A DNA stretch of 64,000 nucleotides. Source: Bacteroidales bacterium. Its GTDB lineage: Bacteria > Bacteroidota > Bacteroidia > Bacteroidales > UBA12077. The stretch is from assembly GCA_027859205.1 (NCBI GenBank), contig JAQIBH010000090.1, positions 87 through 64,086 of the forward strand, given 5' to 3'. The notes under the pieces were generated by a model. It was not told the origin of the DNA and did not search any database. It saw only the letters and a list, made by a program, of their open reading frames with translations. Of this stretch, positions 1 to 15,909 are shown piece by piece (the stretch's first letter is position 1; the number at the start of each line of letters is the position of its first letter). The position numbers and the translations under genes are program-made.

Positions 1-598
1 AACTTCCCATTGAGTGGTGGTTAATTTCTTGTCCACCACCACAAATAATAATATCTTGTAAACCACTTTTAATAAAGTTATATCCTATTCCAAGTGCATG
101 TGAACCACTAGCACAAGCAGCACTTACGGTGAGATTTATTCCTCGTAGTTTAAATATAGTCGATAAATTCATTGTAATGGTAGAATTCATCGATTGAAAA
201 ATTGCTCCTGAACCTAAAAGAGCAGTATCCTTTTTTTCTTTTAATAAATCATAAGAATTAACTATTGATTTGGCTGAGCTATCATTTCCATATAATATTC
301 CAACATCGTTATTATCAAGAAAATCATCATCAATTTTTGCTTGATTTAAAGCTTCAAGGGTAGCAATATAAGCATATTCTCCTTCTTCGGCCAATCCTAT
401 TCGCTGACGACGTTTTAATTTCCCCTTTAAATCTGGACGTTCAATTATACCTGTAAGACCTGAACGAAAGCCTAAATCTTTTCTTAATTGTTCAAATCCA
501 ACTCCAGAAGCACCAACGTAAAGAGATTTATTTACTTCTTCAATATTTTTACCGATCGTAGAATAAATTCCCATTCCTGTTATTACAACTCTATTCAT
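1..598 (-). CDS. beta-ketoacyl-ACP synthase (FabB/FabF-like, aryl polyene/flexirubin-type); runs off the window edge
   Basis: Not in the ORF track. Manual translation from ATG at 598 gives MNRVVITGMGIYSTIG...NLTVSAACASGSHALG, with the catalytic Cys motif; co-oriented with fabG and the lyase. Confidence 0.9.
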   Translation of the reverse strand, partial: MNRVVITGMGIYSTIGKNIEEVNKSLYVGASGVGFEQLRKDLGFRSGLTGIIERPDLKGKLKRRQRIGLAEEGEYAYIATLEALNQAKIDDDFLDNNDVGILYGNDSSAKSIVNSYDLLKEKKDTALLGSGAIFQSMNSTITMNLSTIFKLRGINLTVSAACASGSHALGIGYNFIKSGLQDIIICGGGQEINHHSMGS

Positions 599-622
599 AG
601 ATATATTATCGTAATTTATTTA

Positions 623-1351
623 TTAAGTATAAAGTCCACCATTAACCGAAATTACTTCGCCTGTTATATACGATGCTTTTGGCGATGCTAAAAATGAAAC
701 AACACTTGCTACTTCTTCAGCATTTCCAAATCTACTCATTGGTATAAGACGTTTATATTCTTTTTCTTCAAGCTCTTTAGTCATATCTGTTTTAATAAAA
801 CCCGGAGCAACACAATTAACTGTTATATTCTTCTTTCCAACTTCTTGAGCCAACGCTTTACTAGCTGCAATAACACCACCTTTAGCTGCAGAATAATTAG
901 TTTGTCCCGGTAATCCTTTGATGCCAGATAAGGAAACAATATTGACAATTCTGCCATACCTGTTAATGATCATATCTTGCATTAAAAACTTTGTAATATA
1001 ATAAAAACTATCAAGATTTGTATTCAAAACATCCTTCCAGTCCTCATCTTTCATCCACACAATTAAAGCATCTTTTCTTATTCCTGCATTATTTATTAAT
1101 ACTTCAATAACTGACTCTGGATTTTTTTCTTTCCATTTCCCCAAAGAAGTTCTAATTTCTTCTGGATTTGCAACATCAAATTGAACTAACTCGCCAGAAC
1201 CTCCATTACTTTTTATTTGATTTAAAGTATTTTCAGCTTCTTTGGTGTTACTTCTATAATTAATTAATACATGATATCCTTGTTCCGCAATTTCTAAACA
1301 AATTGCTTTACCTATTCCTCTTGAACCACCAGTAACTAATGCAAATTTCAT
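623..1351 (-). CDS. fabG: 3-oxoacyl-ACP reductase
   Basis: TGGSRGIG, NNAG and YSAAK SDR motifs. Confidence 0.93.
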   Translation of the reverse strand: MKFALVTGGSRGIGKAICLEIAEQGYHVLINYRSNTKEAENTLNQIKSNGGSGELVQFDVANPEEIRTSLGKWKEKNPESVIEVLINNAGIRKDALIVWMKDEDWKDVLNTNLDSFYYITKFLMQDMIINRYGRIVNIVSLSGIKGLPGQTNYSAAKGGVIAASKALAQEVGKKNITVNCVAPGFIKTDMTKELEEKEYKRLIPMSRFGNAEEVASVVSFLASPKASYITGEVISVNGGLYT

Positions 1352-1356
1352 AATAA

Positions 1357-2895
1357 TTAATTTATGCGGTTTAGTTTGTTTTTAATCAAATACCGCTTAA
1401 TATTTTCAATATGTTTATATAAAGGAGCATCCTCAATAAATTTAGGAACAATTGATCTCATTTCGTCATATAACTCTTTAGCAGGTGTAGAAAGTTTGTT
1501 CTTAAAATCCATAAAATCAATAATCTGTAATAAGCTAATGAATTTAATTGCCAATATTTCAAATGTGTTTTCTACAACTTTTTTTGTCATCAAAGCAGCA
1601 TTAGTACCCATACTTACAATATCTTGGTTATCGCCATTATTAGGAATACTATGCACATACATAGGATTCGATAATGTTTGATTTTCAGCAGTTGTAGAAG
1701 TTGCTGTAAATTGAGCAGCCTGCATACCTAAGTTCAATCCTAAAACGCCTAAATTAGCAAAAGGTGGGAATTTCTCGTTTAACTTATTGTTATATAAATA
1801 ATTTAATTGTCTTTCGACAAGCATTGACATTTTAGTAATTACTATTTTTAATTTATCCATTTCTAAAGAAACGTAATCGCCGTGAAAATTACCACCATGA
1901 AAAACATCAATATTTTCACTGTCAATAATTGGATTGTCGTTTACAGAATTTACCTCATTAATTAGAACTTTCTCTACATTTTGTATAGTTTCATACACAG
2001 GGCCTAAAACTTGAGGAACGCAACGAAGTGAATAATATTCTTGTACTTTATCTTTAATAATACCAACATCAACATGGTTATATAAATGATCAGCTCTCTT
2101 TTTAATAAGTTTGCTTGATTCAACCATTTTTCGCATTTCAGCTGCAATAAGGTTTTGACCTTTGTGAAGTTTAACCTGATTTAGTTCTTTAGAAAAATGA
2201 TCGTCGTACGATTCTACAACTTCGTTAATGATACTTGATGATGCAACTGCCCAATTAAGAAGATTTTTAGAATGAATTAGATTAATAATACCTATACCTG
2301 TCATACATGAAGTACCATTAATTATGGCTAGTCCTTCACGAAGATGAACTTTTAAAGGTGAAAGCTTATTTTCATCAAAAACTTCTTTCGCCGGACGGAA
2401 TTCACCATTAAACCAAATCTCTCCTTCACCAATTAAATTTAATGCTAAATGCGACAGCTGAACTAAATCACCACTTGCACCAACGCCACCATGTTCAAAT
2501 ATTTTTGGATATAAGTCTCTATTAATGAATTCTTTAAGTAAAAATACAACTTCGTTATGAATACCCGAATAACCTCGCATTAAAGTGTTTAATCGAGTAA
2601 TCATTAGTGCCTTTACATATAAATTTGGAATTGTATTACCTGATCCGGCAGCATGACTTCGAATAAGATTGTATTGAAGTGCTTTTTGATCCTCATCGCT
2701 AATTTTATATTGAGCCATTGGACCAAAACAGGTATTTATTCCATAAATAACCTTGTTTTTAGAAAATTCGTCCAAGAAATTAAAATTATCTTGTACTTTT
2801 TCTAAAGCTTTAGTATTTAAATCAACTTTTTCTCCTTCAAAAAGAATTTTATTAAAATCTTCAAGATTCAGATTTTCTTCCCCAATAATTATCAT
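1357..2895 (-). CDS. MIO-dependent aromatic amino acid ammonia-lyase, tyrosine ammonia-lyase-like (Flavobacterium FjTAL type)
   Basis: GASGD MIO motif, LQYNLIRSH, QEYYSLRCVPQ, HGGNFHG, NQDIVSMG; context beside KS and FabG as in flexirubin clusters. Confidence 0.88.
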   Translation of the reverse strand: MIIIGEENLNLEDFNKILFEGEKVDLNTKALEKVQDNFNFLDEFSKNKVIYGINTCFGPMAQYKISDEDQKALQYNLIRSHAAGSGNTIPNLYVKALMITRLNTLMRGYSGIHNEVVFLLKEFINRDLYPKIFEHGGVGASGDLVQLSHLALNLIGEGEIWFNGEFRPAKEVFDENKLSPLKVHLREGLAIINGTSCMTGIGIINLIHSKNLLNWAVASSSIINEVVESYDDHFSKELNQVKLHKGQNLIAAEMRKMVESSKLIKKRADHLYNHVDVGIIKDKVQEYYSLRCVPQVLGPVYETIQNVEKVLINEVNSVNDNPIIDSENIDVFHGGNFHGDYVSLEMDKLKIVITKMSMLVERQLNYLYNNKLNEKFPPFANLGVLGLNLGMQAAQFTATSTTAENQTLSNPMYVHSIPNNGDNQDIVSMGTNAALMTKKVVENTFEILAIKFISLLQIIDFMDFKNKLSTPAKELYDEMRSIVPKFIEDAPLYKHIENIKRYLIKNKLNRIN

Positions 2896-2962
2896 CTCCG
2901 TTGTATGTTGTTTAAATTGGTTAATATAAGCGCGTTAGCATTTAAGTTGTTTTTTGAATATG

Positions 2963-2970
2963 CAAATTTA
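2963..2970 (-). promoter_or_regulatory. Bacteroidota -7 promoter box (TAAATTTG) for the lyase-fabG-KS operon
   Basis: Matches TAnnTTTG about 70 nt upstream of the start. Confidence 0.55.
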
Positions 2971-3086
2971 ATAAATACTTTGAAGAATCCTTAAATTCCA
3001 AACCGTTTTAGTAGAAATTTTGGTGAATTCATGAAAACCGTAAACAAACGTGGTTTTTATAGAGCATGTAATTTATTTTAATATAT

Positions 3087-3094
3087 TAATTTTG
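3087..3094 (+). promoter_or_regulatory. Bacteroidota -7 promoter box (TAATTTTG) for the divergent ACP/BtrH operon
   Basis: Matches TAnnTTTG upstream of 3200. Confidence 0.45.
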
Positions 3095-3199
3095 GCCCTA
3101 AGTTAATTTGAATTATTTTCGTGATCTTAATCTTAAATCACAACAATACAGATAATTTAGAAATTTTAAAGCTAAAATAATTGTTGAAAACCGTAGTAC

Positions 3200-3700
3200 A
3201 TGAAAGAAAAAGATGCTTACATAGAATATGAACCGCAACAACTGATAATGTATGTTGAAAAGGAAGACGGTACATTTGGTCCTATTCAAACAGGCTCGTT
3301 TATCTCAAAAAATTACTTAGATGATTTTTGGGAGAAAATGCTTAAGCTAAGAAAATCTTTACTGGAACAGTTGAAAAATAATGAAATAACTTGCGTTTAT
3401 TTTTATAAAATCATTCATGATTTTAATGATGTTGAATTAGCTCGTAGGGCAGGAATTCCTATTTATAAAGTTAAGAAACATCAAAAAGTAAAATCATTCA
3501 AAAATATAAAGTTGTTGGATTTACAAAAATATGCTTATGCTTTTGATGTTCCCGTTTCAAACCTATTTCAAGCAGTAGTTGTTGATGATAACGAAAATAG
3601 GGCTGAGACAGAATTAGAGAAACAACCAATAATTGTTAAGCAAATTAAAACAGATAATCCAAATTTAGTAATTACAAAAATAGAAGTAAATAAAAAATGA
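3200..3700 (+). CDS. Small protein with XRE/HTH-like C-terminal part, of the kind found before BtrH-like genes in flexirubin-type clusters
   Basis: ELARRAGIPIYKVKKH...LQKYAYAFDVPVSNL helix-turn-helix-like pattern; ATGA overlap with the next gene. Confidence 0.6.
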   Translation: MKEKDAYIEYEPQQLIMYVEKEDGTFGPIQTGSFISKNYLDDFWEKMLKLRKSLLEQLKNNEITCVYFYKIIHDFNDVELARRAGIPIYKVKKHQKVKSFKNIKLLDLQKYAYAFDVPVSNLFQAVVVDDNENRAETELEKQPIIVKQIKTDNPNLVITKIEVNKK

Positions 3701-4710
3701 TAATAGAATCTTTTAATCATAAAATGGCTGCTCACTGCGAGTCTGGAACACTGACAGCATTGATAAAACATAAAGGACTTGAAATAAAGGAACCAATGAT
3801 TTTTGGTTTAGGAAGCGGTATGTATTTTGGATATTTAAGTCGTACTCCTAATTTAAGCTTCCCAATGTTTATTTTAAGAACCAAACCTGGAAAGTTAAGG
3901 AAGAAAATTGCTAAAAGAACTGATATAAAATTTATAACTCAAAAATTCAAAGATCAAGAAAAAGCAGAACAGGAATTGGATCGACTAATTGGAGAAGATA
4001 TTCCTGTTGCTTGCCAAGTTGATTTTTATTATATGGATTATATACCACAATGGGAAAGAGTTCATGCTAATATCCATTTTATTACAATTATTGGAAAAGA
4101 GGGAGACGAATATATCGTTAGTGATAGCTATTACCCGAAATTAGCTAGAATACATAAAGATAAATTGCGAAAAGCTAGATTTGCAGGTGGGTATTTAGCT
4201 CCAAAAGGTTTTATGTATTACATTGAATCTGTTCCAGAAAGTATCGATTATAAGCAATTAATTCCAGTAGCGATTAAAAATACAATAAACAATATGATTG
4301 GTGTTCAGCCACCTTTTATTGGAGTTAGAGGGATTCGAACTTTTGCTAAAAAACTTCAAGGATGGCCTAAATTAACGAGAGATGTTGATCATTTATCGCA
4401 CGAGGTGATGAAAATTAATGTTTTTCTTGAAGATCAAGGAACTGGTGGAGGTGGATTTCGATTTTTATATGCTACGTTTCTTCGTCAAGCTTCAGAAATT
4501 CTTAATAATAAAGAATTAGATGAAATGTCAAAAAAGATGATGGAAATAGGAGATGGTTGGAGAAATATTTCTTACTTTGCAGCCAAGATCGGGAAAAACA
4601 GAGATTTAGAATCGGATAGACTTCAAGAACTTGGCCAATTGATAAATGAAAGAGCCGAAGCAGAAGATAAATTTTATAATGAATTAAAAACAGTAGTTAA
4701 TAATATTTAA
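3697..4710 (+). CDS. BtrH-like (papain/C39-fold) ACP-dependent acyltransferase
   Basis: N-terminal AAHCESG Cys motif, HFITIIG His, VSDS Asp, GTGGGGFRFLY C-terminal motif. Confidence 0.8.
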   Translation: MIIESFNHKMAAHCESGTLTALIKHKGLEIKEPMIFGLGSGMYFGYLSRTPNLSFPMFILRTKPGKLRKKIAKRTDIKFITQKFKDQEKAEQELDRLIGEDIPVACQVDFYYMDYIPQWERVHANIHFITIIGKEGDEYIVSDSYYPKLARIHKDKLRKARFAGGYLAPKGFMYYIESVPESIDYKQLIPVAIKNTINNMIGVQPPFIGVRGIRTFAKKLQGWPKLTRDVDHLSHEVMKINVFLEDQGTGGGGFRFLYATFLRQASEILNNKELDEMSKKMMEIGDGWRNISYFAAKIGKNRDLESDRLQELGQLINERAEAEDKFYNELKTVVNNI

Positions 4711-4722
4711 TATTTAGGTAGA

Positions 4723-4998
4723 ATGGGAGAAAATGTTGGTACAGATCTGAAAGCGGATATTAAGAAAATGATTATTGAAACATTAAATATAGAAGATGTT
4801 ACATCAGAGGATATTGGTGATGAATTAATCCTTTTTGGTGGCGATAATACTTTAGGTTTAGATTCAATTGATGCAATAGAGCTTGTAATGGCACTTCAAC
4901 GAGATTTTAAAGTTCGTCTTGATGATCAAAATCTTGCTCGTGAGGTATTAGTAAATGTTAATTCAATTGCAAATTTTATTCAAAGCAAATCAGAATAG
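4723..4998 (+). CDS. Acyl carrier protein
   Basis: Acidic 91 aa; LGLDSIDAIEL phosphopantetheine site. Confidence 0.92.
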   Translation: MGENVGTDLKADIKKMIIETLNIEDVTSEDIGDELILFGGDNTLGLDSIDAIELVMALQRDFKVRLDDQNLAREVLVNVNSIANFIQSKSE

Positions 4999-5034
4999 AA
5001 ACTTACAAATTATAATTCCAATTAAAATTAGAAT

Positions 5035-6123
5035 ATGAAAAGTGCTTACCTGTTAGCCGGGATGAGACTATCTAGATTCATAAAAATTATTATGAAAAAT
5101 GGAATGTGTTTTTATCCTAAATATTTGGTGAGATTTCTATTTCTTTTTCAGAATGGAATATGGGCTTCAATTTTTCATAGAAAAGAAAAATCTATATATG
5201 GAGATAGAATTAAAACGCATAAATTATCTGATGATCCAATAATAATAATAGGACATTGGAGAACAGGTAGTACTTTTTTACATCAGTTATTAGCTTTTGA
5301 TTCCAATTTAGTAACTTCAAATGTTTTTCAGGGGTCAATTCCCGACAGCTTTTTAACATCGAGAAAATCTTATGAACCAATTATGGGTAGAGCTCTTAAA
5401 GGTACTCGACCAATGGATCAGGTAAAACTTAGTATGGATGAGCCTTTGGAGGACGAATATGCACTTTTCCGATTAACAAGTTATTCACCACTTGAACATG
5501 TAATTTTTCCAAAATCAAAGGAATATTTTTTGAATCATTTTCCTGATTTTTTGCCCACAAACGAAAAACTTTTAAAGTGGAAAGAGGCCGTTAAATATTT
5601 TTATAAAAAGTTAACGCTTGAAAATAATAAAGTTATTTTGATTAAAAATCCATTTCATTCTTTTAGGATTAAAGTATTAAATGAAATATTCCCAAATGCC
5701 AGATATATTCATATTATTCGTCATCCACATAAAGTAGTACCTTCTACTATTCGTATGTGGAATATTGTTGGTACTCAAAACAGTATGAATAATAAATGGA
5801 CAAAACCAAAAGTACATGAAACAAGTAATTTACTAGTAAAGATGATGCAGAAGGTTGACTCAGACTTGTCGGAAATATCGAAAGATCGGTATTTCGAAAT
5901 AAAGTTCGAGGATTTGGAGAAAGATCCGATAAATGAAATAAAATCAATTTATAAGCATCTAAATGTTGATTTTTCAAGTGAATTTGAGAAACAAATTAAT
6001 AAGTTTTTAATTTCAGTAAAGGAATACCAAAAAAATAAATATATAATGCCGGAAGGCGATAAGCTGGAAATCAATAACATCCTAAAATCGTGGATGGCAG
6101 AGAAGAATTATAGTTTGGATTAG
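5035..6123 (+). CDS. PAPS-dependent sulfotransferase (Sulfotransfer_3-like)
   Basis: GHWRTGSTFLH 5'-PSB loop, KNPFH, IIRHP..VVPS 3'-PB motif, FEDL. Confidence 0.88.
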   Translation: MKSAYLLAGMRLSRFIKIIMKNGMCFYPKYLVRFLFLFQNGIWASIFHRKEKSIYGDRIKTHKLSDDPIIIIGHWRTGSTFLHQLLAFDSNLVTSNVFQGSIPDSFLTSRKSYEPIMGRALKGTRPMDQVKLSMDEPLEDEYALFRLTSYSPLEHVIFPKSKEYFLNHFPDFLPTNEKLLKWKEAVKYFYKKLTLENNKVILIKNPFHSFRIKVLNEIFPNARYIHIIRHPHKVVPSTIRMWNIVGTQNSMNNKWTKPKVHETSNLLVKMMQKVDSDLSEISKDRYFEIKFEDLEKDPINEIKSIYKHLNVDFSSEFEKQINKFLISVKEYQKNKYIMPEGDKLEINNILKSWMAEKNYSLD

Positions 6124-6178
6124 ATTATTTTTTTGATAATTTTATCCGATTGAAAATAAAGAAAATAAGAGTATATAT

Positions 6179-7453
6179 ATGAAATTTCAGTTAATATTTC
6201 CAAAATGGAGAAAGCTTGAGGGGCAAACAACTTTTAACTTACCACCTCATGGAGCAGTAGTTTTTGCAGCAACAATACCAGATTATGTTGAAGTTGAGTT
6301 TATTGATAATAATCTTGAGGAACTTAAATATGACGATGATGTTGATTTTGTTGGCATCTCGATGCTATTGACCACTCAAATTAAAAACGGATGGGCAATT
6401 GCAGATGAATACAGGAAACGTGGTAAAAAAGTTATATTCGGTGGTATAGCAACAATGTTACATGCCGAAGAAACAATGCTGCATGCGGATTCTGTTTTTC
6501 TTGGTGAGGCCGAAAGTCATATGGATAAGGTATTCAGTGATTTTAAAAACGGCGAATTAAAGCAAGTATATAATCATATGAATGATTTGCCTCCAATAGA
6601 AATTGTGGGTCCAGCTCGTCGCGATTTATATAAACGCGAATTATATTACCACAAAGGAGTGCAAATGGTTGATTTATTTCATGCCTCTCGTGGTTGTAAA
6701 TATAGCTGTTATCCTTGTGCAGTATCCTATTTAGGAGGAAGAAATTTTCGTCCAAGACCAATTGATAAAGTTGTTGAAGAGCTTGCTACAATTGAAAATA
6801 ATAGACTGTTTATTGTCGATAACTCATTGGCACAAGATACACAGTGGGAAAAAGATTTGTTTAAGGAAATGATACCCTTTAAGAAAAAATGGGTTAGTCA
6901 TACTATCGAAGATAAACCGGAAGTTTTGGATTTGGCCGCTCAGGCCGGTGCATGGTACGTTTATCAAGCGGTTTTCGATACTTCTGATTATATTAGAAGA
7001 CGCGTTAAACAATATCATGATTATGGAATTGGTGTTGAAGGTACAATCCTTTTGGGCTTGGATAATCAAACAGAAGATGATATAAAAAGGTTAATTGATT
7101 TCTTATTAGAAATTGATCTTGATTTGGCGGAATTTACAGTATTGGCTCCATTTCCACATACAAAGGCGTATGTTGATTTAGTAAAACAAAACCGTATCTT
7201 TAATAAAGATTGGAACGATTATAACGCTGGGCAGGTGGTATATCAACCAAAACATATGAGTCCTGAGAGATTACAGGAATTGTATCAATATGCGTGGGAT
7301 ACATTTTATAAAGATGAATCTCAAGAAGAAAAAATGTTTAAGCTTTTGAAAAAAGTAGTTTCTCGTGAAATAGAAGATGGAACTTTCAGAAAACCTGTAA
7401 AAGATTTATCAAGATTAAGCTTTGGTAAAAATGTTAAACATAAAATTTCGTAA
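6179..7453 (+). CDS. Cobalamin-binding radical SAM protein (class B methyltransferase-like)
   Basis: N-terminal B12-binding domain (GGIATM), SRGCKYSCYPC CxxxCxxC, LAPFPHT. Confidence 0.88.
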   Translation: MKFQLIFPKWRKLEGQTTFNLPPHGAVVFAATIPDYVEVEFIDNNLEELKYDDDVDFVGISMLLTTQIKNGWAIADEYRKRGKKVIFGGIATMLHAEETMLHADSVFLGEAESHMDKVFSDFKNGELKQVYNHMNDLPPIEIVGPARRDLYKRELYYHKGVQMVDLFHASRGCKYSCYPCAVSYLGGRNFRPRPIDKVVEELATIENNRLFIVDNSLAQDTQWEKDLFKEMIPFKKKWVSHTIEDKPEVLDLAAQAGAWYVYQAVFDTSDYIRRRVKQYHDYGIGVEGTILLGLDNQTEDDIKRLIDFLLEIDLDLAEFTVLAPFPHTKAYVDLVKQNRIFNKDWNDYNAGQVVYQPKHMSPERLQELYQYAWDTFYKDESQEEKMFKLLKKVVSREIEDGTFRKPVKDLSRLSFGKNVKHKIS

Positions 7454-7467
7454 TAAATATTTATAAC

Positions 7468-7845
7468 ATGAACACTAAAGTTGATGATTATCAAGATCAG
7501 GTTTATAATTTTAATGGATTGTGGGATCTCCCTTCAATTTGTGGATTGAAAATTGTAAAAAAAGGAAAGAATACTTTTATTATTGTAACAGATTTATATG
7601 ACGAAAATCCTGGAACATCGATAACAGAATGGAATACAAAGCTTGCAAAAGAGATTTGTGATAAATATAGCATTGATTATAATCAGATAATTTATATTGA
7701 ACATACTCCTAATAAACAAACGAAACTATCATTTAATCAAGAATCGTTTTTTAAAGTTAGCTTTGATATTTATGATGATAAATTTGAAAATCCTCAATGG
7801 CAAGAAATAACAAAAGAAGAAATTGATAAATTATTAACTGTTTAA
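7468..7845 (+). CDS. Hypothetical protein within the ACP operon
   Basis: 125-aa ORF tightly spaced between the radical SAM and ACP genes; NPGTSITE and IEH motifs. Confidence 0.75.
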   Translation: MNTKVDDYQDQVYNFNGLWDLPSICGLKIVKKGKNTFIIVTDLYDENPGTSITEWNTKLAKEICDKYSIDYNQIIYIEHTPNKQTKLSFNQESFFKVSFDIYDDKFENPQWQEITKEEIDKLLTV

Positions 7846-7856
7846 ATTATAATATA

Positions 7857-8159
7857 ATGGCTCAAATTACAGATAAAACGAGGGATGAAGTTAAGGAAGT
7901 TGTTTTGGATTTTTTTGCTGAGGAATGTGAAATGGAGCTTGATGAAATATCTGAAGATTCAAATATCATAAGTGATTTAGATGGCGACTCTTTAATGTTT
8001 TTAGAATTAATTGAAATATTCAAAAAGAAGTTTAATTTAAATATAGAATTAAAAACAATTGGGAAATACTCTATAAAGAATCCGGTTCAAACTATTGGCG
8101 AATTAATTGATATGCAATTGCTTATTATTGAGCATGAAAACAACATTCTTGATATGTAA
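7857..8159 (+). CDS. Acyl carrier protein (second, divergent)
   Basis: Acidic 100 aa; DLDGDSLMFLEL Ser site. Confidence 0.85.
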   Translation: MAQITDKTRDEVKEVVLDFFAEECEMELDEISEDSNIISDLDGDSLMFLELIEIFKKKFNLNIELKTIGKYSIKNPVQTIGELIDMQLLIIEHENNILDM

Positions 8160-8168
8160 AACAATCAC

Positions 8169-8540
8169 ATGATTTTTGGATGTGGTATTGATATAGAAGA
8201 AATAGAAAGATTTAATAAACATTATTTTGATAAAGGTATATTATCGAATTTAGTTTATGATATTTTTACATCTAAAGAAATTGAAAACTTTTCAGTTTTT
8301 GGGAAAGAAGCCTTTTTAAAAGGCTTTTCTTTTAAAGAAGCATTTTATAAAGCACTAGATAATACAGATGTAGATTTCAAAGACATAGAAATTATTTTTT
8401 CAAACGATAAGGATTTTGAGATTTTTACCTCAAATAGAATAAAGGAGATACTTATGAAGGAAAGAATTACTGATATCACTGCAAGTTTTCATATAAGTGA
8501 CCAGTACGTTGTTTTCAAGGTTTTGTTAAAAAAATTATAA
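8169..8540 (+). CDS. acpS: Holo-ACP synthase (AcpS-type 4'-phosphopantetheinyl transferase)
   Basis: GIDIEEIERF and FSFKEAFYKAL motifs. Confidence 0.82.
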   Translation: MIFGCGIDIEEIERFNKHYFDKGILSNLVYDIFTSKEIENFSVFGKEAFLKGFSFKEAFYKALDNTDVDFKDIEIIFSNDKDFEIFTSNRIKEILMKERITDITASFHISDQYVVFKVLLKKL

Positions 8541-8543
8541 ATA

Positions 8544-9473
8544 ATGAGTAATAAAACAGCTTTTGTTTTTCCTGCATTTATTACTGAGTTTACTGAAAAG
8601 GAATTAGATTTTCTAAGCGAAAATTCCATTGATTTTACTAATTATTTGCAAAGAGCCTCTTCAGCTATAAATCTTGATTTACCAGAGTTTTCATATAGTT
8701 CAAATAATTATAGAAACAACGAGTTAAAGTCGCAACTTTTGGCATATTTATTTAGTTGTGCTTTTTTTGATATAGCAGAAAAAAAAGGTGTTGTGCCTCA
8801 TTTTGTAGTTGGATATAGTATGGGGATATACGCATCATTATATGCTGCGAAATCTATTTCCTTAGAAGAAGGTGTAAAATTAATTCATAAGGCTTATACA
8901 ATTGTTCATGAATTAACTAAAACTGAAATTTATGGAATGGGTGCAATCATAGGATTGCCAATAAAGGATATTGAGTATATTATAACTGAAAGTAAATTAG
9001 ATGCAGATATTATTAATATAAATAATGAACATTCATTTGTTATTGCGGGAAAAAAGAAAGAAGTGAATTTGGTTCTTGAAAAGGCAAAAGAGGAGGGTGC
9101 GATGTCAACAGTTGAACTTACTGTTAATACACCTTATCATTCAAAATATTTATCAAAATTTACAGATAGCCTTAAACAATATATTGATACTATTCCTATA
9201 AGCAATGCTGAGATTCCAATTATATCTACCTATGATCAAAGAGAAATAGTTAAAGTATCTGAAATTAAATCTGAATTAATATTTAATTTAACATGTAAAA
9301 TTAATTGGTATAAAACAGTGCAGAAATTGCTTAAGAAAGGTGTAAGTGATATTTATGAATGTGGTGCCGGAAAGGATTTGAAGAAAATTTCAAGATTCAT
9401 TAAAGGTGATTATCGTATGAACTTAATTTATAAAATATTAAAGGAGCCTAAAAAAGACTCCTTTTCTATATGA
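8544..9473 (+). CDS. ACP S-acyltransferase (FabD-like)
   Basis: AFVFP start, GYSMG nucleophile elbow, PYHS, ECGAG. Confidence 0.82.
   Translation: MSNKTAFVFPAFITEFTEKELDFLSENSIDFTNYLQRASSAINLDLPEFSYSSNNYRNNELKSQLLAYLFSCAFFDIAEKKGVVPHFVVGYSMGIYASLYAAKSISLEEGVKLIHKAYTIVHELTKTEIYGMGAIIGLPIKDIEYIITESKLDADIININNEHSFVIAGKKKEVNLVLEKAKEEGAMSTVELTVNTPYHSKYLSKFTDSLKQYIDTIPISNAEIPIISTYDQREIVKVSEIKSELIFNLTCKINWYKTVQKLLKKGVSDIYECGAGKDLKKISRFIKGDYRMNLIYKILKEPKKDSFSI
9440..9464. terminator. Hairpin between convergent genes, lying inside the FabD-like 3' end
   Basis: AAAGGAG-N11-CTCCTTT. Confidence 0.45.
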
Positions 9474-9484
9474 AATATAAGATA

Positions 9485-10096
9485 TTATTTAAAAGCTTTT
9501 TTCACTAAAAATGCTCCAAGAGATTTTCCACCTTTAGCATATGATTCTTGAATTCTGTATCCAGCATCATAATCATTTCCCATACCACGACCAGGAACTT
9601 TTGTCATAGTAATAACAGCTAAAACATTTTCTTTATTCTCCGTTTCAACAAATTTTACTTCAAGATTAATCATGGCATCTTTTTTCATAATTCCAATGTT
9701 AAATCCAGGTTCTGTAAAAGTTGTTTTTACAATTAATGTGTATTTAGCATTAATATTTGTTTGATCGAAATTACAGTTAGCTTTTGCAGCGTAATTATTC
9801 ATTAATTCTTCAAATTTTGGGTGAAATCTACCTTCTCTATCTGCTTCCCAATTATCTTTCCATGTATCACCTTTTCCTGCTTCAGCCTCATTATATTCAG
9901 CAACTTTTTTATTTACATAATCTTCTTCTTTATCAAACTTTCCAACTGCCATTTCACTATAGTCATATTCTAATAGTACTTCTGTTTGTCCTTTTAAGAA
10001 ACTTAAATCACCTTCAGTTACCTTAATTTTTTGCGCTTGAACAGCGGTTACACTTAGTACAACAAGCGCAGCTACAATAGTTTTTAAAATCTTCAT
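9485..10096 (-). CDS. Exported hypothetical protein
   Basis: Sec signal peptide ending AVQA/Q; 203 aa. Confidence 0.8.
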   Translation of the reverse strand: MKILKTIVAALVVLSVTAVQAQKIKVTEGDLSFLKGQTEVLLEYDYSEMAVGKFDKEEDYVNKKVAEYNEAEAGKGDTWKDNWEADREGRFHPKFEELMNNYAAKANCNFDQTNINAKYTLIVKTTFTEPGFNIGIMKKDAMINLEVKFVETENKENVLAVITMTKVPGRGMGNDYDAGYRIQESYAKGGKSLGAFLVKKAFK

Positions 10097-10132
10097 AGTT
10101 TATAGTTTTAATAGTTTAGTACGATTAAAAAA

Positions 10133-10318
10133 TTAGATATAATTAATTATAATTGCATAAATCCCATGAATAGAAGCAGTAAAAAACAGAATAATTCCGA
10201 GTAATTTATGAGTTTTATATTTTACCTTAATAAGTCTTAAACCACTTAGAAGTTGGAATAAAATTAATGATAAATTAATTATTCCAAGTAATAATATAAT
10301 ATCTACACCAAAAATCAT
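10133..10318 (-). CDS. Small two-helix membrane protein with two His in TM2 (cytochrome b-like hairpin)
   Basis: 61 aa, two hydrophobic helices, G12/G26 and H37/H51; starts 12 nt after the SOR-like gene. Confidence 0.7.
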   Translation of the reverse strand: MIFGVDIILLLGIINLSLILFQLLSGLRLIKVKYKTHKLLGIILFFTASIHGIYAIIINYI

Positions 10319-10330
10319 AATAATTTATTT

Positions 10331-10717
10331 TTATTCAACTTTAACAGTTACTTTTTCTTCGCTTTTTGATCCATGTCTGTTGCAGTGGCCTTCAGCTCTT
10401 ATTTCAAAATCTGCCTCAGCTTTAACCTTAAACTCAAGAGTAAAGTTTTGATTTTCTGGTAATTTATCTTTTGGATATTCCCATTTTTTATATTCTTCGC
10501 CATTTATTTTTACTAAAACCCAATCGGTATGATGCCCCGACGTATTACCAGAATGGCTAACTTCTATTTTTATAGTTATTTCTGTGCCCTTTTGAGCTTT
10601 TCCAGGAGCAATAACTTTTACCGAGGTTTTATTGGCATAACCATTGAAAGAGAATAAGATAAAAGCGAATAATGTGATAATTCCTGTAATCGTAAATTTA
10701 CGTTTCATAGTATACAT
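10331..10717 (-). CDS. Exported desulfoferrodoxin/neelaredoxin (superoxide reductase)-like protein
   Basis: HSGNTSGHHTDW and HCNRHG resemble the SOR HPNTTEHHI and CNIHG motifs; N-terminal signal peptide. Confidence 0.75.
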   Translation of the reverse strand: MYTMKRKFTITGIITLFAFILFSFNGYANKTSVKVIAPGKAQKGTEITIKIEVSHSGNTSGHHTDWVLVKINGEEYKKWEYPKDKLPENQNFTLEFKVKAEADFEIRAEGHCNRHGSKSEEKVTVKVE

Positions 10718-10898
10718 CCCGTTTAAATGTTTAGCTAATTTAATTAAAATTTTCTGATTTGGAAATTTGTTTAGGATTTATTGAATAATATTAAAGTGTT
10801 AAGAATTAAGAGCAAGATATTGTGCAGAAAGTAAATTAAAATCTAGGGTTAAGTATTATATGCTTGATTTTATGATTATGTTTTTTTGTATTTCTTTA

Positions 10899-10933
10899 TA
10901 TCTTGTGTCTTGTATCTTGTGTCTCACATCTTT
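10899..10933. repeat. 7-bp tandem repeat, five units
   Basis: TATCTTG TGTCTTG TATCTTG TGTCTCA CATCTTT. Confidence 0.75.
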
Positions 10934-10935
10934 TA

Positions 10936-12279
10936 TTAAATAACATCTGTTCCTTTTTTTATTAGCCACAACTTCCCAACATTTTCATAAAATTTTTCAA
11001 GTGGAAGTTTTGTTTTTAATACACTATTAAAGAAATTATATTTCGAAAGGTCATAATCAATTATTTGATTTTTTATTTCATCATAAAAAGGAGTGCCAGG
11101 CATAGGAGTAAGGATAGTATAACCAGCATAAGTTACTTTATGTGAATTAGTATATTCCGATAAAGCATTAAAATCAGAATCATCATAATCGTTCGGAATA
11201 ACATAATTTCCACGAAGCATAATTCCATTTTGATGAAAAATATTTATTGCTTCATGAATTAATTTCGCATCGGAACTTTTGTTATATCTTTTTAGTTCTT
11301 CTTCTCGAAAGGATTCAAATCCACAAATTACTACTTTTAAGCCACCTTTTGCTAGCTTTTCAATCAATTTAGGATATTTAACAGCTGTATCTGTTCTAAT
11401 ATCCATTATAAATGTTTTCTTAATTCCTTCTTCCTTAATTCGATCAAATAGCTTGTCAATAGTTGAGGTATCTACAATTGTATTTGCATCGGCAAACCTA
11501 ACAATAGGATAATCGTCGGTTTGTTTTAACTCTGTAATTATACTTTCGACGTTTCGTTTTAAATACTTCCCGTCGTACTGGCACCATATCGAGCAAAATG
11601 TACATTTATAAGGGCAACCAAGAGATGTGAAAAGGTAGGTTGATGGATATGGAGAATTCCCGACTTTATACGTTTCTTTCCATCTTTCTAAGTGTTTTCT
11701 GTTAGGAAATAAGAAATCCTTGTTTGCAGAATTAAATTCTATTGTTTTGGCTTTTGATTTTTCAAGTCTTCCTGCTCTATTAAAAATGACTCCTGGAATG
11801 TTTTCAATAGGAGTATTTAGTTCTTTCGCTTTAATAACTTCTTTAAATGTGTGTGCCGATTGCCCGGGAAGAATTATATCAACCGCAGGATCAGTAAAAT
11901 CATTTGTTGAAAGGGTTGCATGTAATCCGCCTACTACCGTTAATATATTTGGATTAAACTCCTTTGTTGCTTGTAAAATTTCAATTGCATAATAAAATTC
12001 CGATGCTATTGTGGTTGTTCCTACAACATCGGGCTTATGTTCTTTTAATAATTTTGTAACTAATTCTTTTAATGGAGGAGTCGTTTCTGGGTGAAGATCA
12101 TATTCACCTTTAGTATCAAAAACTACAACATCGTGGTCTTTTACTGCTTCAGCTACAGTAAGTAAACCTAACGGAGGGCCAATTAATTTTTTATGAATAT
12201 ACTTTTTTGCTTCTTCTGGTGCAGAAGCTAAAATCATGTTATGTGGTGATCGAGGTGTATTTATTAAAAGTATTTTCAT
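10936..12279 (-). CDS. Cobalamin-binding radical SAM protein (HpnR-like C-methyltransferase family)
   Basis: PPLGL, VGGLHAT, SLGCPYKCTFCSIW, LTPMPGTP. Confidence 0.88.
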   Translation of the reverse strand: MKILLINTPRSPHNMILASAPEEAKKYIHKKLIGPPLGLLTVAEAVKDHDVVVFDTKGEYDLHPETTPPLKELVTKLLKEHKPDVVGTTTIASEFYYAIEILQATKEFNPNILTVVGGLHATLSTNDFTDPAVDIILPGQSAHTFKEVIKAKELNTPIENIPGVIFNRAGRLEKSKAKTIEFNSANKDFLFPNRKHLERWKETYKVGNSPYPSTYLFTSLGCPYKCTFCSIWCQYDGKYLKRNVESIITELKQTDDYPIVRFADANTIVDTSTIDKLFDRIKEEGIKKTFIMDIRTDTAVKYPKLIEKLAKGGLKVVICGFESFREEELKRYNKSSDAKLIHEAINIFHQNGIMLRGNYVIPNDYDDSDFNALSEYTNSHKVTYAGYTILTPMPGTPFYDEIKNQIIDYDLSKYNFFNSVLKTKLPLEKFYENVGKLWLIKKGTDVI

Positions 12280-12428
12280 ATGTGAAGTCTAACAAAAAGC
12301 TGTTTGCGAAGATAACAAAAGATTCTAATTTATTTAAAAGGAAAGTCCCTTATGAATTAATGTGAACGACTTGATTATATATTTATGAATTCGATAATTT
12401 ATTTACAAAGCTTATTGATTTTTAAAAT

Positions 12429-14780
12429 TTAGAATTGAATTCGATAACTTGCCATTGGATATAATTCCATTTCACGATTATAATATTCTTTACCAGTTAA
12501 AGGATCTATTCTATATTCATATACACTTGTATATCCTGTTCTGTATTGTAAATCCATAGCAATTTCAACATTGTATTTGGGTTTATTCCTCTTAATTCCT
12601 AATCTTAAATTAATTCGGAAATAATCTTTTTGCTGGATTTCATAAGCATTATCCCAATCAAGAACTTCAATTCCTTGGTTTAACGTTTCTGCTACATCGT
12701 AAGGAATATAGGGTCTTCCTCCAGCATAGGTTGTTCTTAATCCAATAGAAAAAGCGTTATTCTTTCTGAAAGGAATTTCATAACCTCCTAATACATTAAT
12801 TGCGTAATTACCATTAAATGCTGTATTCCTCTTTATCCCATCATATCCCTTATAATTTGACTCATAGATGGATGCTGTAATTAAGAAATAAAAATTATTG
12901 GATAAAAATCGTTCGAGTGTAAATTCAATCCCATAGTTTTCACCAGTACCTTTATTTACTAAACTATCAGTACGTTCAATAAAATATTCAGCACCAAAAT
13001 TAAGAACGGAATACTCGGGTTGTCCTTCTTTTACAGGTACATCATATAAATATTGGTAATATGTTTCTATTTTTAATCTTAGTACATCACTAAATAAATG
13101 ATCATACCCTAAAATAATCTGATTGCTTTTTGTAAAATCCAAATTCTTGTTAGATAAAACGATATCTCCATTGTTTAGCTGGGTTTGAGTAAAATAGATT
13201 ATTCTTAGCTGCGTTTGGCTATGTAATCCATATCCAATTTTAAAAGAGTTTTTCTCGTTTAAATTCCAATTAAATCCCATTCGTGGCTCTAATGAAAATG
13301 AATTGTTCATATCAAGATATTGGGAATGTAGCCCTAAATACAGTTCTATATTATTAGTGAATTTATGTTTGAATTGTGTATATAATTGAAATAAATTAAA
13401 TTCATCGCTCAGATCAGTGAACACCTCAAATTGTCCTTCAGTCATCGTACTATCAGCAAAATTTACAAAGTATCGATCTGCAATAAGACCATAGCTAAAT
13501 GTATTTCTGCTATTAATTTTTGTGTTCACATGAGTTGTAAGGCTGGCTTTTACTTCAGATGATTCTTCACCTGCCCAAATATCTGGACTTGGGTCCCCGA
13601 CACTTATAGTATCAATTTGAGTAGTTACTTTTGATCCATACAGAGATATGGCAGTTTGTAATCTGGTTTTTGTACCAAAAAAATGAACATATGAAAGAGC
13701 TAATGTGCCAATATCAGATCCATTACTTAAATCTTCGCCCCAACTTTCAAAAGCCCAGTCTTTTTGATCATCATTAGAATCAAACATTTCGATATAGCTT
13801 TTGCCACCCATCCCAACAAAAGTCAGTCTCCCTTTTTTCATAGGAAAATTGAGTTTAAATGTTAAATCTTGATATTGTGTGGTTTCAACTTCAGCACCAA
13901 GTAAATCTATAATATCTACAAGTGAATATCTATAAGCAATTAAATAAGAGGCATTAGAGTTTTTTGAAAATGGACCTTCAGTTCCAAATTCTAAACCGTT
14001 ATAACCAAATTCAGCCCAATATTCTCTTTTTTCATTGTTTCCCGCACGCATTTTTAAATCAAATACTCCTGCAAGGGCATTTCCATATTCAGCAGGAAAA
14101 GCTCCTGTTAAGAAATCCGAATTAGTAAGCAAATTATTATTTAATATGGTTATGGGACCACCGGTTGTCCCGGATGCCGCAAAATGATTCGGATTAGGAA
14201 TTTCAATTCCATCGAGCCTCCATAATAATCCTGTTGAGGAGTTTCCCCTAATAACAATATCGTTTCTGTTATCACGAACTGACATAACTCCGGCATAATT
14301 TGCGGCCATTCTCGCAGGATCTCCATAGCTTCCCGGATATCTTTTAGTTTCATCAACCGTAAATGATCGGGCACTAATGGTTGCCATTTTATTTATAGGC
14401 TTATCTTTTTTGATAGTTGCTTTTATAACTACTTCGTCAATTGCAGTCACAGATTCGTCTAATTCAATTCTAATAATTTTCTCTTTAGCTGAGCTAATGA
14501 CAATATTATCAATAATTTGTGTTTTGTAACCAATATAACTTGCTTGAATGGTTTGCCTCCCTATAATTACTTCTTCGAATCTAAAATAACCGTTTTCATT
14601 GCTTATTGTACCTTGTTGAGGCGAAGATTCCGGTAAAATAATATTTACACTAGGTAAAGGAATCTGAGTTTCCCTATCAACAACAATCCCTCTTAATGTT
14701 TGTTTTAAATTTTCTTGTGAAGAGCCGACCTTAGTTTGGGAAATCAGCAGAGAAAGAATTAAGATATATTTTAGGTTCAT
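12429..14780 (-). CDS. TonB-dependent receptor with N-terminal carboxypeptidase-regulatory-like domain
   Basis: Signal peptide, plug motifs (IVIRGNS, NPNHF, FPAEYGNALAGVFD), beta-barrel ending in Phe (YRIQF). Confidence 0.9.
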   Translation of the reverse strand: MNLKYILILSLLISQTKVGSSQENLKQTLRGIVVDRETQIPLPSVNIILPESSPQQGTISNENGYFRFEEVIIGRQTIQASYIGYKTQIIDNIVISSAKEKIIRIELDESVTAIDEVVIKATIKKDKPINKMATISARSFTVDETKRYPGSYGDPARMAANYAGVMSVRDNRNDIVIRGNSSTGLLWRLDGIEIPNPNHFAASGTTGGPITILNNNLLTNSDFLTGAFPAEYGNALAGVFDLKMRAGNNEKREYWAEFGYNGLEFGTEGPFSKNSNASYLIAYRYSLVDIIDLLGAEVETTQYQDLTFKLNFPMKKGRLTFVGMGGKSYIEMFDSNDDQKDWAFESWGEDLSNGSDIGTLALSYVHFFGTKTRLQTAISLYGSKVTTQIDTISVGDPSPDIWAGEESSEVKASLTTHVNTKINSRNTFSYGLIADRYFVNFADSTMTEGQFEVFTDLSDEFNLFQLYTQFKHKFTNNIELYLGLHSQYLDMNNSFSLEPRMGFNWNLNEKNSFKIGYGLHSQTQLRIIYFTQTQLNNGDIVLSNKNLDFTKSNQIILGYDHLFSDVLRLKIETYYQYLYDVPVKEGQPEYSVLNFGAEYFIERTDSLVNKGTGENYGIEFTLERFLSNNFYFLITASIYESNYKGYDGIKRNTAFNGNYAINVLGGYEIPFRKNNAFSIGLRTTYAGGRPYIPYDVAETLNQGIEVLDWDNAYEIQQKDYFRINLRLGIKRNKPKYNVEIAMDLQYRTGYTSVYEYRIDPLTGKEYYNREMELYPMASYRIQF

Positions 14781-14827: not shown

Positions 14828-15394
14828 TTAATTACTTTTTATTGAGAATCCTGCTTGTTCAATAATATCTCCTAACTGAATGTATTTCCCGTGAGAATAT
14901 GCTATTAGTTCTTGATGTTGCATGTTTATAGCACCGGTTGATTTATCGATATAATTTTCAGATACTTGAATATTCACAACTTCGGCAAGAAACATGTCGT
15001 GTGATCCAAGTTCTTTAATTTCAGTTACTTTACATTCAATATTTATAGGAGATTCAACAATTATTGTAGTATTTACCTTTTCACCTTTACGAGGAGTGAG
15101 CCCCATTTCTTTAAACTTATCACAATCTCTTCCAGATTTTCTTCCACAGAAATCTGCTGCTCTAACTAAATCTTTTGTCGAGTAATTTATCACAAACTCC
15201 ATATTTCTCTTAATAATATCATGCGAGTATCGCTCTTTTCGAATAGAAACATAGCACATAGGAGGAATTGAATTAATTGTTCCTGTCCATGCTATTGTAA
15301 TAATATTATGCTCATCAGAGTTTGAGCCACAGCTTACCATTGCTGCAGGAACTGGATAAATTAATGCTGCAGGGTTTTTATTTATTTTTTTCAT
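14828..15394 (-). CDS. Flavin reductase family protein (flavoredoxin-like)
   Basis: YPVPAAMV, NIITIAW, SGRDCDKF, ELGSHDMFLAEV. Confidence 0.9.
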   Translation of the reverse strand: MKKINKNPAALIYPVPAAMVSCGSNSDEHNIITIAWTGTINSIPPMCYVSIRKERYSHDIIKRNMEFVINYSTKDLVRAADFCGRKSGRDCDKFKEMGLTPRKGEKVNTTIIVESPINIECKVTEIKELGSHDMFLAEVVNIQVSENYIDKSTGAINMQHQELIAYSHGKYIQLGDIIEQAGFSIKSN

Positions 15395-15521
15395 GATTTT
15401 TAGGGCTTGACATTAATTTATAATCCAGAAGATTAAGTATAATATGTTTAATTTAATAAAACTAGCCGTTTTTTTAACTATAACAGATGAAAAATACAAA
15501 TGAGGAAAATAAATTTTTACA

Positions 15522-15553
15522 AATAAAAAAACCGACATTTGCCGGTTTTTATT
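15522..15553 (-). terminator. Intrinsic terminator after the STAS gene
   Basis: AAAAACCG-N8-CGGTTTTT flanked by A/T tracts. Confidence 0.7.
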
Positions 15554-15892: not shown

Positions 15893-15909
15893 AGATTCCG
15901 GTTTAAAGG

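Follow-up and report, generated by a model that had tools for sequence, protein, structure and literature searches.

The DNA analysed here is a 64,000-nucleotide stretch of an uncultured Bacteroidales genome (the window; GenBank assembly GCA_027859205.1, contig JAQIBH010000090.1, positions 87–64,086; G000:C190:87-64086 in the genome and contig numbering used below). Positions 1–14780 of the window are probably the right-hand end of a ~45-kb flexirubin-type gene cluster for a tyrosine ammonia-lyase (TAL)-primed aryl polyene plus a dialkylresorcinol. This segment contains a plus-strand operon that is likely to be an accessory arm of the same pathway and that is a composite of three modules: DarG'-DarH'-ACP1-sulfotransferase (ACP, acyl carrier protein), a B12-binding-domain radical S-adenosylmethionine (SAM) enzyme (rSAM1) with a 125-aa partner, and ACP2-AcpS-FabD'. 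Examination was limited to the first ~16 kb of the window, with genes taken from a listing of open reading frames (ORFs), domains from Pfam, and families from NCBIfam with the cut-offs of the models. The genes named in an initial annotation of this DNA lie where it had placed them according to all three sources (Table 1).

Extent of the cluster and its flexirubin core

The window starts 86 nt from the end of its contig. The β-ketoacyl-ACP synthase (KS) placed there by the initial annotation is real, but only its N-terminal 199 aa are present, the gene being cut by the contig end. The remainder forms the start of a second contig of the same genome (C128:1-1080), which matches the rest of the KS at 88%. 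Because C128 begins with the missing part of the window KS, C128 and the contig of the window were taken as two halves of one ~45-kb cluster. Using tblastn, 19 of 20 window proteins were found in the same order in G008, a complete relative from the same genus, and the order recurs across the loci described below, so the arrangement is not attributed to chance.

To the left of the TAL gene, G008 carries a full flexirubin-type set that starts with the KS, an ACP, and an LpxL-like acyltransferase. It further includes a B12-binding radical SAM enzyme of the family TIGR04072 (422.5 bits), a FabZ-like protein, the true DarG (160 bits) and true DarH (468.7 bits), an ABC pair, a thioesterase, three KS-type genes, a further ACP, a deacetylase, LolA2, FabZ, a glycosyltransferase (GT)/DUF2062 protein, an MMPL-acyltransferase-methyltransferase fusion, two amine-oxidase-type flavoproteins (FAD oxidases), an Ntn-hydrolase (AAT) protein, and a PaaK-type CoA ligase. 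The whole of this core set is present in the same order on C128 (64–91% identity) and, together with FlxA and FlxB scoring over their family cut-offs in the window, it bears out the earlier assignment to a flexirubin-type cluster. Two B12-binding radical SAM genes had been described for the locus; both are present, but the true flexirubin part carries a third, the TIGR04072 member on C128 (425.7 bits; cut-off, 360). A second TIGR04072-like protein was detected away from the cluster (G000:C122:16879-18156; 331.7 bits, below the same cut-off).

A family scan of proteins located DarB on a further contig, C180 (605 bits; cut-off, 550), unlinked to the rest of the cluster. The adjoining 309-aa gene has no family match and its counterpart in Tannerella only a weak flavodoxin match, so DarA was not established. 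Of the 37 genus genomes, 27 have a DarB that scores over its cut-off; these include 22 of the 26 with the full module (FlxA, rSAM1, and the sulfotransferase), which argues against the module replacing DarA/DarB within the genus. In G476, a genome with the sulfotransferase block, DarB appears as two overlapping matches (positions 2–113 and 106–377; G476:C35:43443-44571), an arrangement that suggests a frameshift or assembly error.

A probable duplicate acyl-transfer unit beside a sulfotransferase

The nine plus-strand genes (3200–9473) are spaced by −4 to 55 nt, and are therefore read as one operon; Pfam searches of the operon genes detected no ketosynthase, reductase, or dehydratase. The first gene, which overlaps the second by 4 nt, had been described as HTH-like, and this holds for the fold: the five-helix core of an AlphaFold2 (AF2) model (mean predicted local distance difference test [pLDDT], 73.4) superposes on XRE/Cro-type domains with a root-mean-square deviation (rmsd) of 1.5–2.2 Å over 53–60 residues, at weak Foldseek E-values (4e-3 to 0.1). 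The protein itself is a divergent paralogue of DarG, with which it aligns over the HTH core before a C-terminal extension that is absent from true DarG. It was treated as a paralogue (DarG') and not as a member of the DarG family because both of its family scores fall below the cut-offs.

The second gene had been described as a BtrH-type addition to the pathway. The BtrH_N domain is present, but the protein is a second copy of DarH, which is a standard flexirubin/dar gene. DarH' has 38% identity to the true DarH of its own cluster and belongs to a separate paralogue group (51–90% identity inside the group, 32–38% to true DarH). Across a set of 43 sequences, DarH' and true DarH have residues H13-C14-E15, H123, N125, H127, and D143 in common, each conserved in 95% or more. 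The carrier protein that follows, ACP1, shares 37% identity with the 84-aa ACP found in the main cluster. DarG'-DarH'-ACP1 would represent a second copy of the unit with which the cluster passes acyl groups from carrier protein to acceptor, linked here to a 3'-phosphoadenosine-5'-phosphosulfate (PAPS)-type sulfotransferase.

Searched against the PDB with a family profile, the sulfotransferase is closest to Stf-type structures (2z6v, E = 9.6e-14; 2zq5, E = 1.7e-12), ahead of the CurM/OLS sulfotransferases (E = 2.3e-7), while as a single sequence its best match is, marginally, the CurM sulfotransferase (E = 1.3e-8), followed by that of OLS (E = 2.4e-8). The PDB matches span mainly the C-terminal half. 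Its GHWRTGST and RHPHKVVPS segments align with the corresponding loops of the CurM and Stf structures, the former being, presumably, the 5'-phosphosulfate loop. Almost all of the 635 homologues detected at E ≤ 1e-10 come from uncultured Bacteroidales, and the sole functional label among them is an automatic one, ‘omega-hydroxy-beta-dihydromenaquinone-9 sulfotransferase’. An APS kinase domain, and with it a PAPS supply, is present in the genome of the window. As a marker of the sulfotransferase this kinase is uninformative, as it occurs in 33 of the 37 genus genomes, including four that lack the sulfotransferase.

rSAM1 and its 125-aa partner

Both rSAM1 and a second enzyme further along the window (rSAM2) have a CxxxCxxC motif and an N-terminal B12-binding domain, as in class B radical SAM methyltransferases; neither reaches the cut-off of a characterised methylase subfamily in NCBIfam, and their PDB matches are distant. 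rSAM1 falls in no characterised subfamily, with best NCBIfam scores of 61.6 bits for TIGR04013 (cut-off, 251) and 53.5 bits for TIGR04072 (cut-off, 360). It is strongly conserved, with 73–77% identity to relatives in Tannerella forsythia, Parabacteroides, Draconibacterium, Prolixibacteraceae, and other records, and a mean column identity of 77% over 36 sequences. Genus relatives also possess a paralogue of rSAM1 (~30–33% identity; examples in Table 1), for which the match reads through one in-frame TAA/TAG in five genomes and contains no stop in the others; the stop-containing form may represent a pair of genes, a pseudogene, or something different.

The gene that follows, encoding the 125-aa protein (unk125), adjoins rSAM1 in 67 of 80 loci. 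Its invariant residues are G17, S23, C25, N47-P48-G49, T53, P81, and E92. The AF2 model is confident (pLDDT, 86.6), and Foldseek returned no PDB match at E ≤ 0.001. In a VIA-align comparison with 48,161 chains the best candidate, a histidine racemase half-domain, reached Z = 5.4 (rmsd 3.6 Å, 89 aligned residues), which is below a meaningful level, so that it was rejected as the fold, and several proline-racemase/DapF-like entries scored Z = 3.6–4.2. A likeness of the SxCG loop of the modelled protein to these enzymes is a lead only.

The predicted complex of rSAM1 with unk125 scored 0.73, compared to 0.17 for the best of three controls; this mark was attained by 58 out of 80 complexes of solved structure and by 2 out of 110 mismatched pairs, which is a rough guide as our own alignments were used. 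Three runs share at least 85% of contacts, with a pLDDT of at least 84 for the partner. The predicted interface joins residues 176–179 and 183–188 of rSAM1, which lie beside the CxxxCxxC cysteines, to the conserved loops 18–22, 44–54, and 78–91 of unk125. The modelled complex thus supports, rather than shows, that rSAM1 binds unk125.

Distribution and modularity

A search with rSAM1 recovered 278 relatives in species-representative genomes, which by record title are almost all uncultured Bacteroidales or Bacteroidota. The best 80 loci were kept for neighbourhood counts using tblastn with the window proteins, divided into 23 genus-type loci (rSAM1 ≥83% identity) and 57 others (<83%). The genus-type loci display the gene order of the window, 18 of them including KS, FlxB, and FlxA, with the rest being short contigs. 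Among the 57 other loci, unk125 was found in 45, the sulfotransferase in 16, ACP2 in five, AcpS in one, and FabD' in four. The block of sulfotransferase, radical SAM, and ACP genes, for which synteny had been suggested as a check, is therefore kept in genus-type loci and resolves into separable modules outside the genus.

Clustering all ORFs of the loci revealed three recurring contexts for rSAM1. In one, it lies between FlxV/FlxW-type genes and an alpha/beta hydrolase plus FlxY-type ligase, downstream of the GT and MMPL fusion genes (typical row, GT-MMPL-FlxV-FlxW-rSAM1-unk125-(hydrolase)-FlxY). In another, represented by Tannerella forsythia, it stands beside a DarB-like ketosynthase (a label that rests on the G000 member of that gene cluster), true DarG, true DarH, and ABC genes. 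The third is the row DarG'-DarH'-ACP-sulfotransferase-rSAM1-125aa-OM barrel-lipoprotein (OM, outer membrane). Because its parts recur separately in other loci, the operon was divided into the three modules named above. The proposal that it encodes one self-contained pathway did not survive this comparison, since a ketosynthase is missing from the operon and the three modules turn up apart from one another in other loci.

Four loci from records titled Leptospirales, Thiohalospira, and Alphaproteobacteria (L042, L052, L053, and L082) have rSAM1 at 75–84% identity, with L053 carrying the full genus-type row; these are probably mislabelled or mis-binned contigs of metagenome-assembled genomes and not gene transfers.

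A further gene block occurs at G000:C4:44748-50071 (L094:8748-14071), with a counterpart at G008:C1:904017-909273 (L098:4018-9274) that lies ~17–21 kb to the left of the FlxY-type ligase in G008. It encodes an O-methyltransferase (weakly FlxJ/BchU-like), a YbgC-type thioesterase, an enoyl-CoA hydratase, an AcpS-like phosphopantetheinyl transferase (PPTase), a second hydratase, a ketosynthase of the StlD/DarB family (111.7 bits, below cut-off), and an OMP beta-barrel protein. In other lineages, a thioesterase-hydratase-hydratase-KS row directly follows the genes for rSAM1 and the 125-aa protein. One possibility is that this block adds another ring-forming branch to the same pathway.

Co-occurrence with the flexirubin pathway

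At least one flexirubin-core-type gene occurs within 10 kb of 12 of the 15 non-genus sulfotransferase blocks and of 41 of the 57 non-genus rSAM1 loci. At the genome level, FlxA scored over its cut-off in nine of ten genomes tested outside the genus, comprising four of the five genomes with the sulfotransferase block and all five with rSAM1 only, including T. forsythia. A draw of 400 other genomes from the phylum contained 22 with FlxA over the cut-off, none of which had rSAM1 or a TIGR04072 radical SAM enzyme among the at most four first-look candidates scored per genome; the canonical clusters are therefore taken to lack these genes, in agreement with the initial annotation, which had regarded them as lying beyond the known flexirubin sets. 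Among the 37 genus genomes, 26 contain FlxA, rSAM1, and the sulfotransferase together, whereas six lack all three genes (three of these six being 91–98% complete). Of the five discordant genomes, four are ≤79% complete and the fifth, G007 (96% complete), has an 85-residue piece of rSAM1 at a contig start.

Proposed pathway and alternative explanations

From the gene content we infer a route in which every chemical step and the product, sulfation and methylation included, is conditional. DarG', DarH', and ACP1 would transfer another acyl group from an ACP to the pigment lipid or to its resorcinol, with the sulfotransferase sulfating a hydroxyl on that lipid. A two-subunit radical SAM enzyme formed by rSAM1 and its 125-aa partner would act on the polyene, the resorcinol, or the acyl chain, with C-methylation as the default guess because rSAM1 has a B12-binding domain. 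ACP2, AcpS, and FabD' would provide private priming and malonyl loading of the carrier proteins, with chain extension carried out by the ketosynthases of the main cluster. The same accessory set would include rSAM2, an OM barrel, and a lipoprotein, probably for tailoring and placement in the outer membrane.

The operon could, alternatively, be responsible for a distinct sulfated (acyl) lipid assembled on the carriers that it encodes, and lie beside the pigment cluster by chance or through shared regulation, which is considered distinctly improbable. Several observations favour such an independent pathway and weigh against an accessory role: the operon itself encodes two ACPs, a PPTase, and a FabD-like loader, which is what a stand-alone pathway would be expected to possess; no TAL lies within 10 kb in 14 of the 15 sulfotransferase blocks outside the genus; three of these 15 loci (L060, L065, and L078) are devoid of flexirubin-core-type genes; and one of the five sulfotransferase-block genomes tested, G474, has no FlxA over the cut-off. 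The occurrence of the operon without TAL, which had been named as grounds for rejecting a link, is thus common at the level of the locus, but at the level of the genome FlxA accompanies four of the five blocks. An independent pathway would also have to operate without a ketosynthase, reductase, or dehydratase in the operon, and it does not account for DarG', DarH', and ACP1 being paralogues of flexirubin/dar parts, for the block standing on the same strand and in one row with FlxT/U/V/W/Y genes in other lineages, or for the joint presence or joint absence of FlxA, rSAM1, and the sulfotransferase in 26 and six, respectively, of the 37 genus genomes. Further points count against the accessory arm. 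The co-occurrence counts overstate the support because related genomes are not independent, and some radical SAM matches may have been missed by the limit on candidates in the phylum searches. DarB was not found in four good genus genomes with FlxA, rSAM1, and the sulfotransferase (G016, G049, G050, and G013) and is over its cut-off in only two of five carriers outside the genus; something other than a dialkylresorcinol may thus serve as the acceptor. For rSAM1, the B12-domain score is marginal (PF02310, 34.9 bits; cut-off, 32.1), the Radical_SAM score of 26.8 bits is below the Pfam cut-off of 29.5, and the sole PDB match (E = 2.8e-4) is to AprD4, which we take to be a B12-domain radical SAM enzyme that acts as a dehydratase and not as a methylase.

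The roles of the sulfotransferase and of rSAM1 can each be read in another way. The sulfotransferase could be an activating enzyme of the CurM/OLS type that sulfonates a hydroxyl of an ACP1-bound intermediate so that the group can leave in an elimination, a decarboxylation, or a ring closure, and the final product would be unsulfated. Its gene lies directly after an ACP gene, the CurM and OLS enzymes are its best single-sequence matches, and DarH', as a Cys/His protein of acyl-transfer or hydrolase type, could release the chain; but the profile search favours the mycobacterial Stf-type enzymes, the structural matches are confined mainly to the C-terminal half, and no CurM-type thioesterase adjoins, so that an activating role appears improbable. 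For rSAM1 and its partner, a reaction other than methylation, namely an oxygen-independent substitute for a step such as ring formation or aromatisation, desaturation, or rearrangement in putatively anaerobic lineages, is a possible though rather unlikely alternative. The failure to find rSAM1 in the 22 FlxA-positive genomes of the phylum draw, its position in T. forsythia directly beside the DarB-like ketosynthase and true DarG-DarH-ABC genes, its lack of an equivalog with AprD4 as the only structural match, and its extreme conservation would all fit such a reaction. On the other side, most characterised B12-domain radical SAM enzymes are methyltransferases, and the ring methyl of flexirubin originates from methionine (Schoner 2014, PMC3992019).

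It is conceivable, though doubtful, that rSAM1 and unk125 form an undescribed two-subunit radical SAM enzyme, in which the partner caps the Fe-S/SAM site, for an oxygen-independent lipid step, and that together with DarH', the ACP, and the sulfotransferase they yield a class of sulfated pigment lipids. If so, aryl-polyene/resorcinol lipid synthesis would include an oxygen-independent step that aerobic flexirubin producers either carry out in another way or lack, and the sulfated pigment lipid class would be widespread in uncultured Bacteroidales, with the radical SAM part found in the oral pathogen T. forsythia as well.

Comparison with known systems

Flexirubin-type pigments are used as a chemotaxonomic marker of the Bacteroidota, known mostly from aerobic isolates. 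The variant described here, as judged from 278 species-level rSAM1 records and 635 sulfotransferase homologues, points to an undescribed, possibly sulfated, radical-SAM-tailored membrane lipid, and combines an enzyme that keeps 73–77% identity across families with a dedicated small partner of no recognised fold. As rSAM1 occurs in the culturable T. forsythia, its function could be tested there.

BtrH and BtrI belong to butirosin biosynthesis, and DarH' resembles this pair in having a BtrH_N domain (133 bits) and adjoining a dedicated carrier protein, a combination that suggests acyl transfer from ACP to acceptor by DarH'; unlike BtrH, DarH' stands in a lipid-pigment and not an aminoglycoside context. 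With the Stf and CurM/OLS sulfotransferases (2z6v, 2zq5, 4gbm, and 4gox), the window enzyme has in common the Sulfotransfer_3 fold and the GHWRTGST and RHP...PS regions, but the similarity is distant (E = 1e-13 to 1e-7) and the gene stands alone in a flexirubin-type cluster. TIGR04072, an uncharacterised, ladderane-associated ‘lipid biosynthesis B12-binding/radical SAM protein’ family, likewise places a B12-binding radical SAM enzyme in a lipid cluster resembling type II fatty acid synthesis. Scores against its cut-off of 360 bits (rSAM1, 53.5; rSAM2, 16.9) assign both enzymes to different families.

The canonical flexirubin cluster, as far as given in the accessible parts of PMC3992019 and of PMC12968099 (gene list), has in common with the present one FlxA, FlxB, the type II KS/ACP/dehydratase set, DarG, DarH, and the ABC pair, as well as LolA2, the GT/DUF2062 protein, the MMPL-acyltransferase-methyltransferase fusion, the FAD oxidase, the Ntn hydrolase, the CoA ligase, and DarB. 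Relative to these same sources, the additions are three B12-domain radical SAM enzymes, the sulfotransferase, a second DarG/DarH/ACP set, the 125-aa partner, and the private ACP/AcpS/FabD-like set, while DarB is unlinked. In the dar operon, for example that for arcuflavin in Azoarcus sp. BH72 (PMC3949708, accessible part), a small conserved protein, a BtrH-like protein, a carrier protein, and an ABC exporter correspond to the unit duplicated here. The window copy is followed by the sulfotransferase and radical SAM genes and not by ABC genes, its DarG is C-terminally extended, and its DarH' has 38% identity to true DarH. A full-text literature search, with most subscription journals outside its scope, returned no report in which a sulfotransferase or radical SAM enzyme is connected with a flexirubin, dialkylresorcinol, or aryl polyene cluster. 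The accessible text of PMC13455363, retrieved for flexirubin and Tannerella, contains no description of the module, and that of PMC8406957, retrieved for dialkylresorcinol and sulfotransferase, is not relevant to it.

Putative loading genes, rSAM2, and neighbouring genes

FabD' scores below the FabD equivalog (TIGR00128, 149.1 bits; cut-off, 260.9) and has GYSMG in place of GHSxG, and is therefore assigned only to the Acyl_transf_1 superfamily. rSAM2 lies 1.46 kb past FabD' on the opposite strand. Its best NCBIfam match is HpnR (TIGR04367, 141.6 bits; cut-off, 650), and its PDB matches are 9ccb (E = 1e-8) and TokK (E = 7.6e-6). The suggestion that this second radical SAM enzyme is part of the system gains support from matches (60–69% identity) beside rSAM1 in nine loci outside the genus; a tenth row, L035, is a genus-type gene row.

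Between FabD' and rSAM2 lies the gene for a 203-aa exported protein or lipoprotein, found in 17 of the 23 genus-type and 12 of the 57 other loci and in several of these directly after the OM barrel. The OM barrel itself occurs in 13 of the genus-type and 17 of the other loci, usually right after the 125-aa gene.

Table 1. Features in the first part of the window, with supporting matches, and examples of the rSAM1 paralogue in genus relatives
Feature	Position	Strand	Evidence
Beta-ketoacyl-ACP synthase, N-terminal 199 aa only	2..598	-	PF00109 80 bits; 83% identical to 407-aa KS of G008
FlxB, flexirubin short-chain dehydrogenase/reductase-family ketoreductase	623..1351	-	NF053542 405.7 bits (cut-off 340)
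FlxA, flexirubin-type TAL	1357..2895	-	NF053541 836.2 bits (cut-off 700); PF00221 531 bits
DarG', divergent DarG-family paralogue, 166 aa	3200..3700	+	no Pfam match; NF053545 46 bits (cut-off 170); NF053536 43.7 bits (cut-off 70)
DarH', second paralogous BtrH-related putative acyltransferase	3697..4710	+	NF053550 324.8 bits (cut-off 300); BtrH_N 133 bits; DUF4872
ACP1, PRK09184-type carrier protein	4723..4998	+	PF00550; NF006617 46.9 bits; LGLDSI serine motif
PAPS-type sulfotransferase, Sulfotransfer_3, Stf/CurM superfamily	5035..6123	+	PF13469 111.3 bits (cut-off 27)
rSAM1, B12-binding-domain radical SAM enzyme	6179..7453	+	PF02310 34.9 bits; PF04055 26.8 bits; CKYSCYPC motif
125-aa rSAM1 partner (unk125)	7468..7845	+	no Pfam/NCBIfam match
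ACP2, second carrier protein	7857..8159	+	PF00550 34.2 bits; DGDSL motif
AcpS-type 4'-phosphopantetheinyl transferase	8169..8540	+	PF01648 44.9 bits; TIGR00556 44.2 bits
FabD', divergent FabD-like acyltransferase	8544..9473	+	PF00698 48.4 bits; GYSMG serine motif
203-aa exported protein or lipoprotein, no family	9485..10096	-	signal-peptide-like N-terminus
128-aa desulfoferrodoxin-domain-like exported protein	10331..10717	-	PF01880 29.6 bits; 19/23 genus-type, 2/57 other loci
rSAM2, second B12-binding radical SAM enzyme, distantly HpnR/BchE-like	10936..12279	-	PF04055 54.3 bits; PF02310 51.2 bits; CPYKCTFC motif
783-aa CarboxypepD_reg/Plug-type outer-membrane barrel	12429..14780	-	PF13715 58.6 bits; PF07715 24.7 bits
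rSAM1 paralogue, example	G008:C1:1829327-1830514		
rSAM1 paralogue, example	G021:C22:2161-3348		
rSAM1 paralogue, example	G009:C170:2447-3637		
rSAM1 paralogue, example	G018:C58:15422-16606		
rSAM1 paralogue, example	G048:C162:4128-5309		

A 61-aa hydrophobic ORF on the minus strand within 10133–10717, after which comes the gene for the 128-aa desulfoferrodoxin-domain-like protein, has a weak Ferric_reduct match and no tblastn match in the 23 genus-type loci. Just outside the conserved accessory set, the minus strand at 14828–16272 encodes a flavin reductase, found in genus-type loci only, followed by STAS and Hpt domain genes. The stretch itself is present in three DNA runs of one study (X1–X3, P1), which are labelled as a saline spring metagenome.

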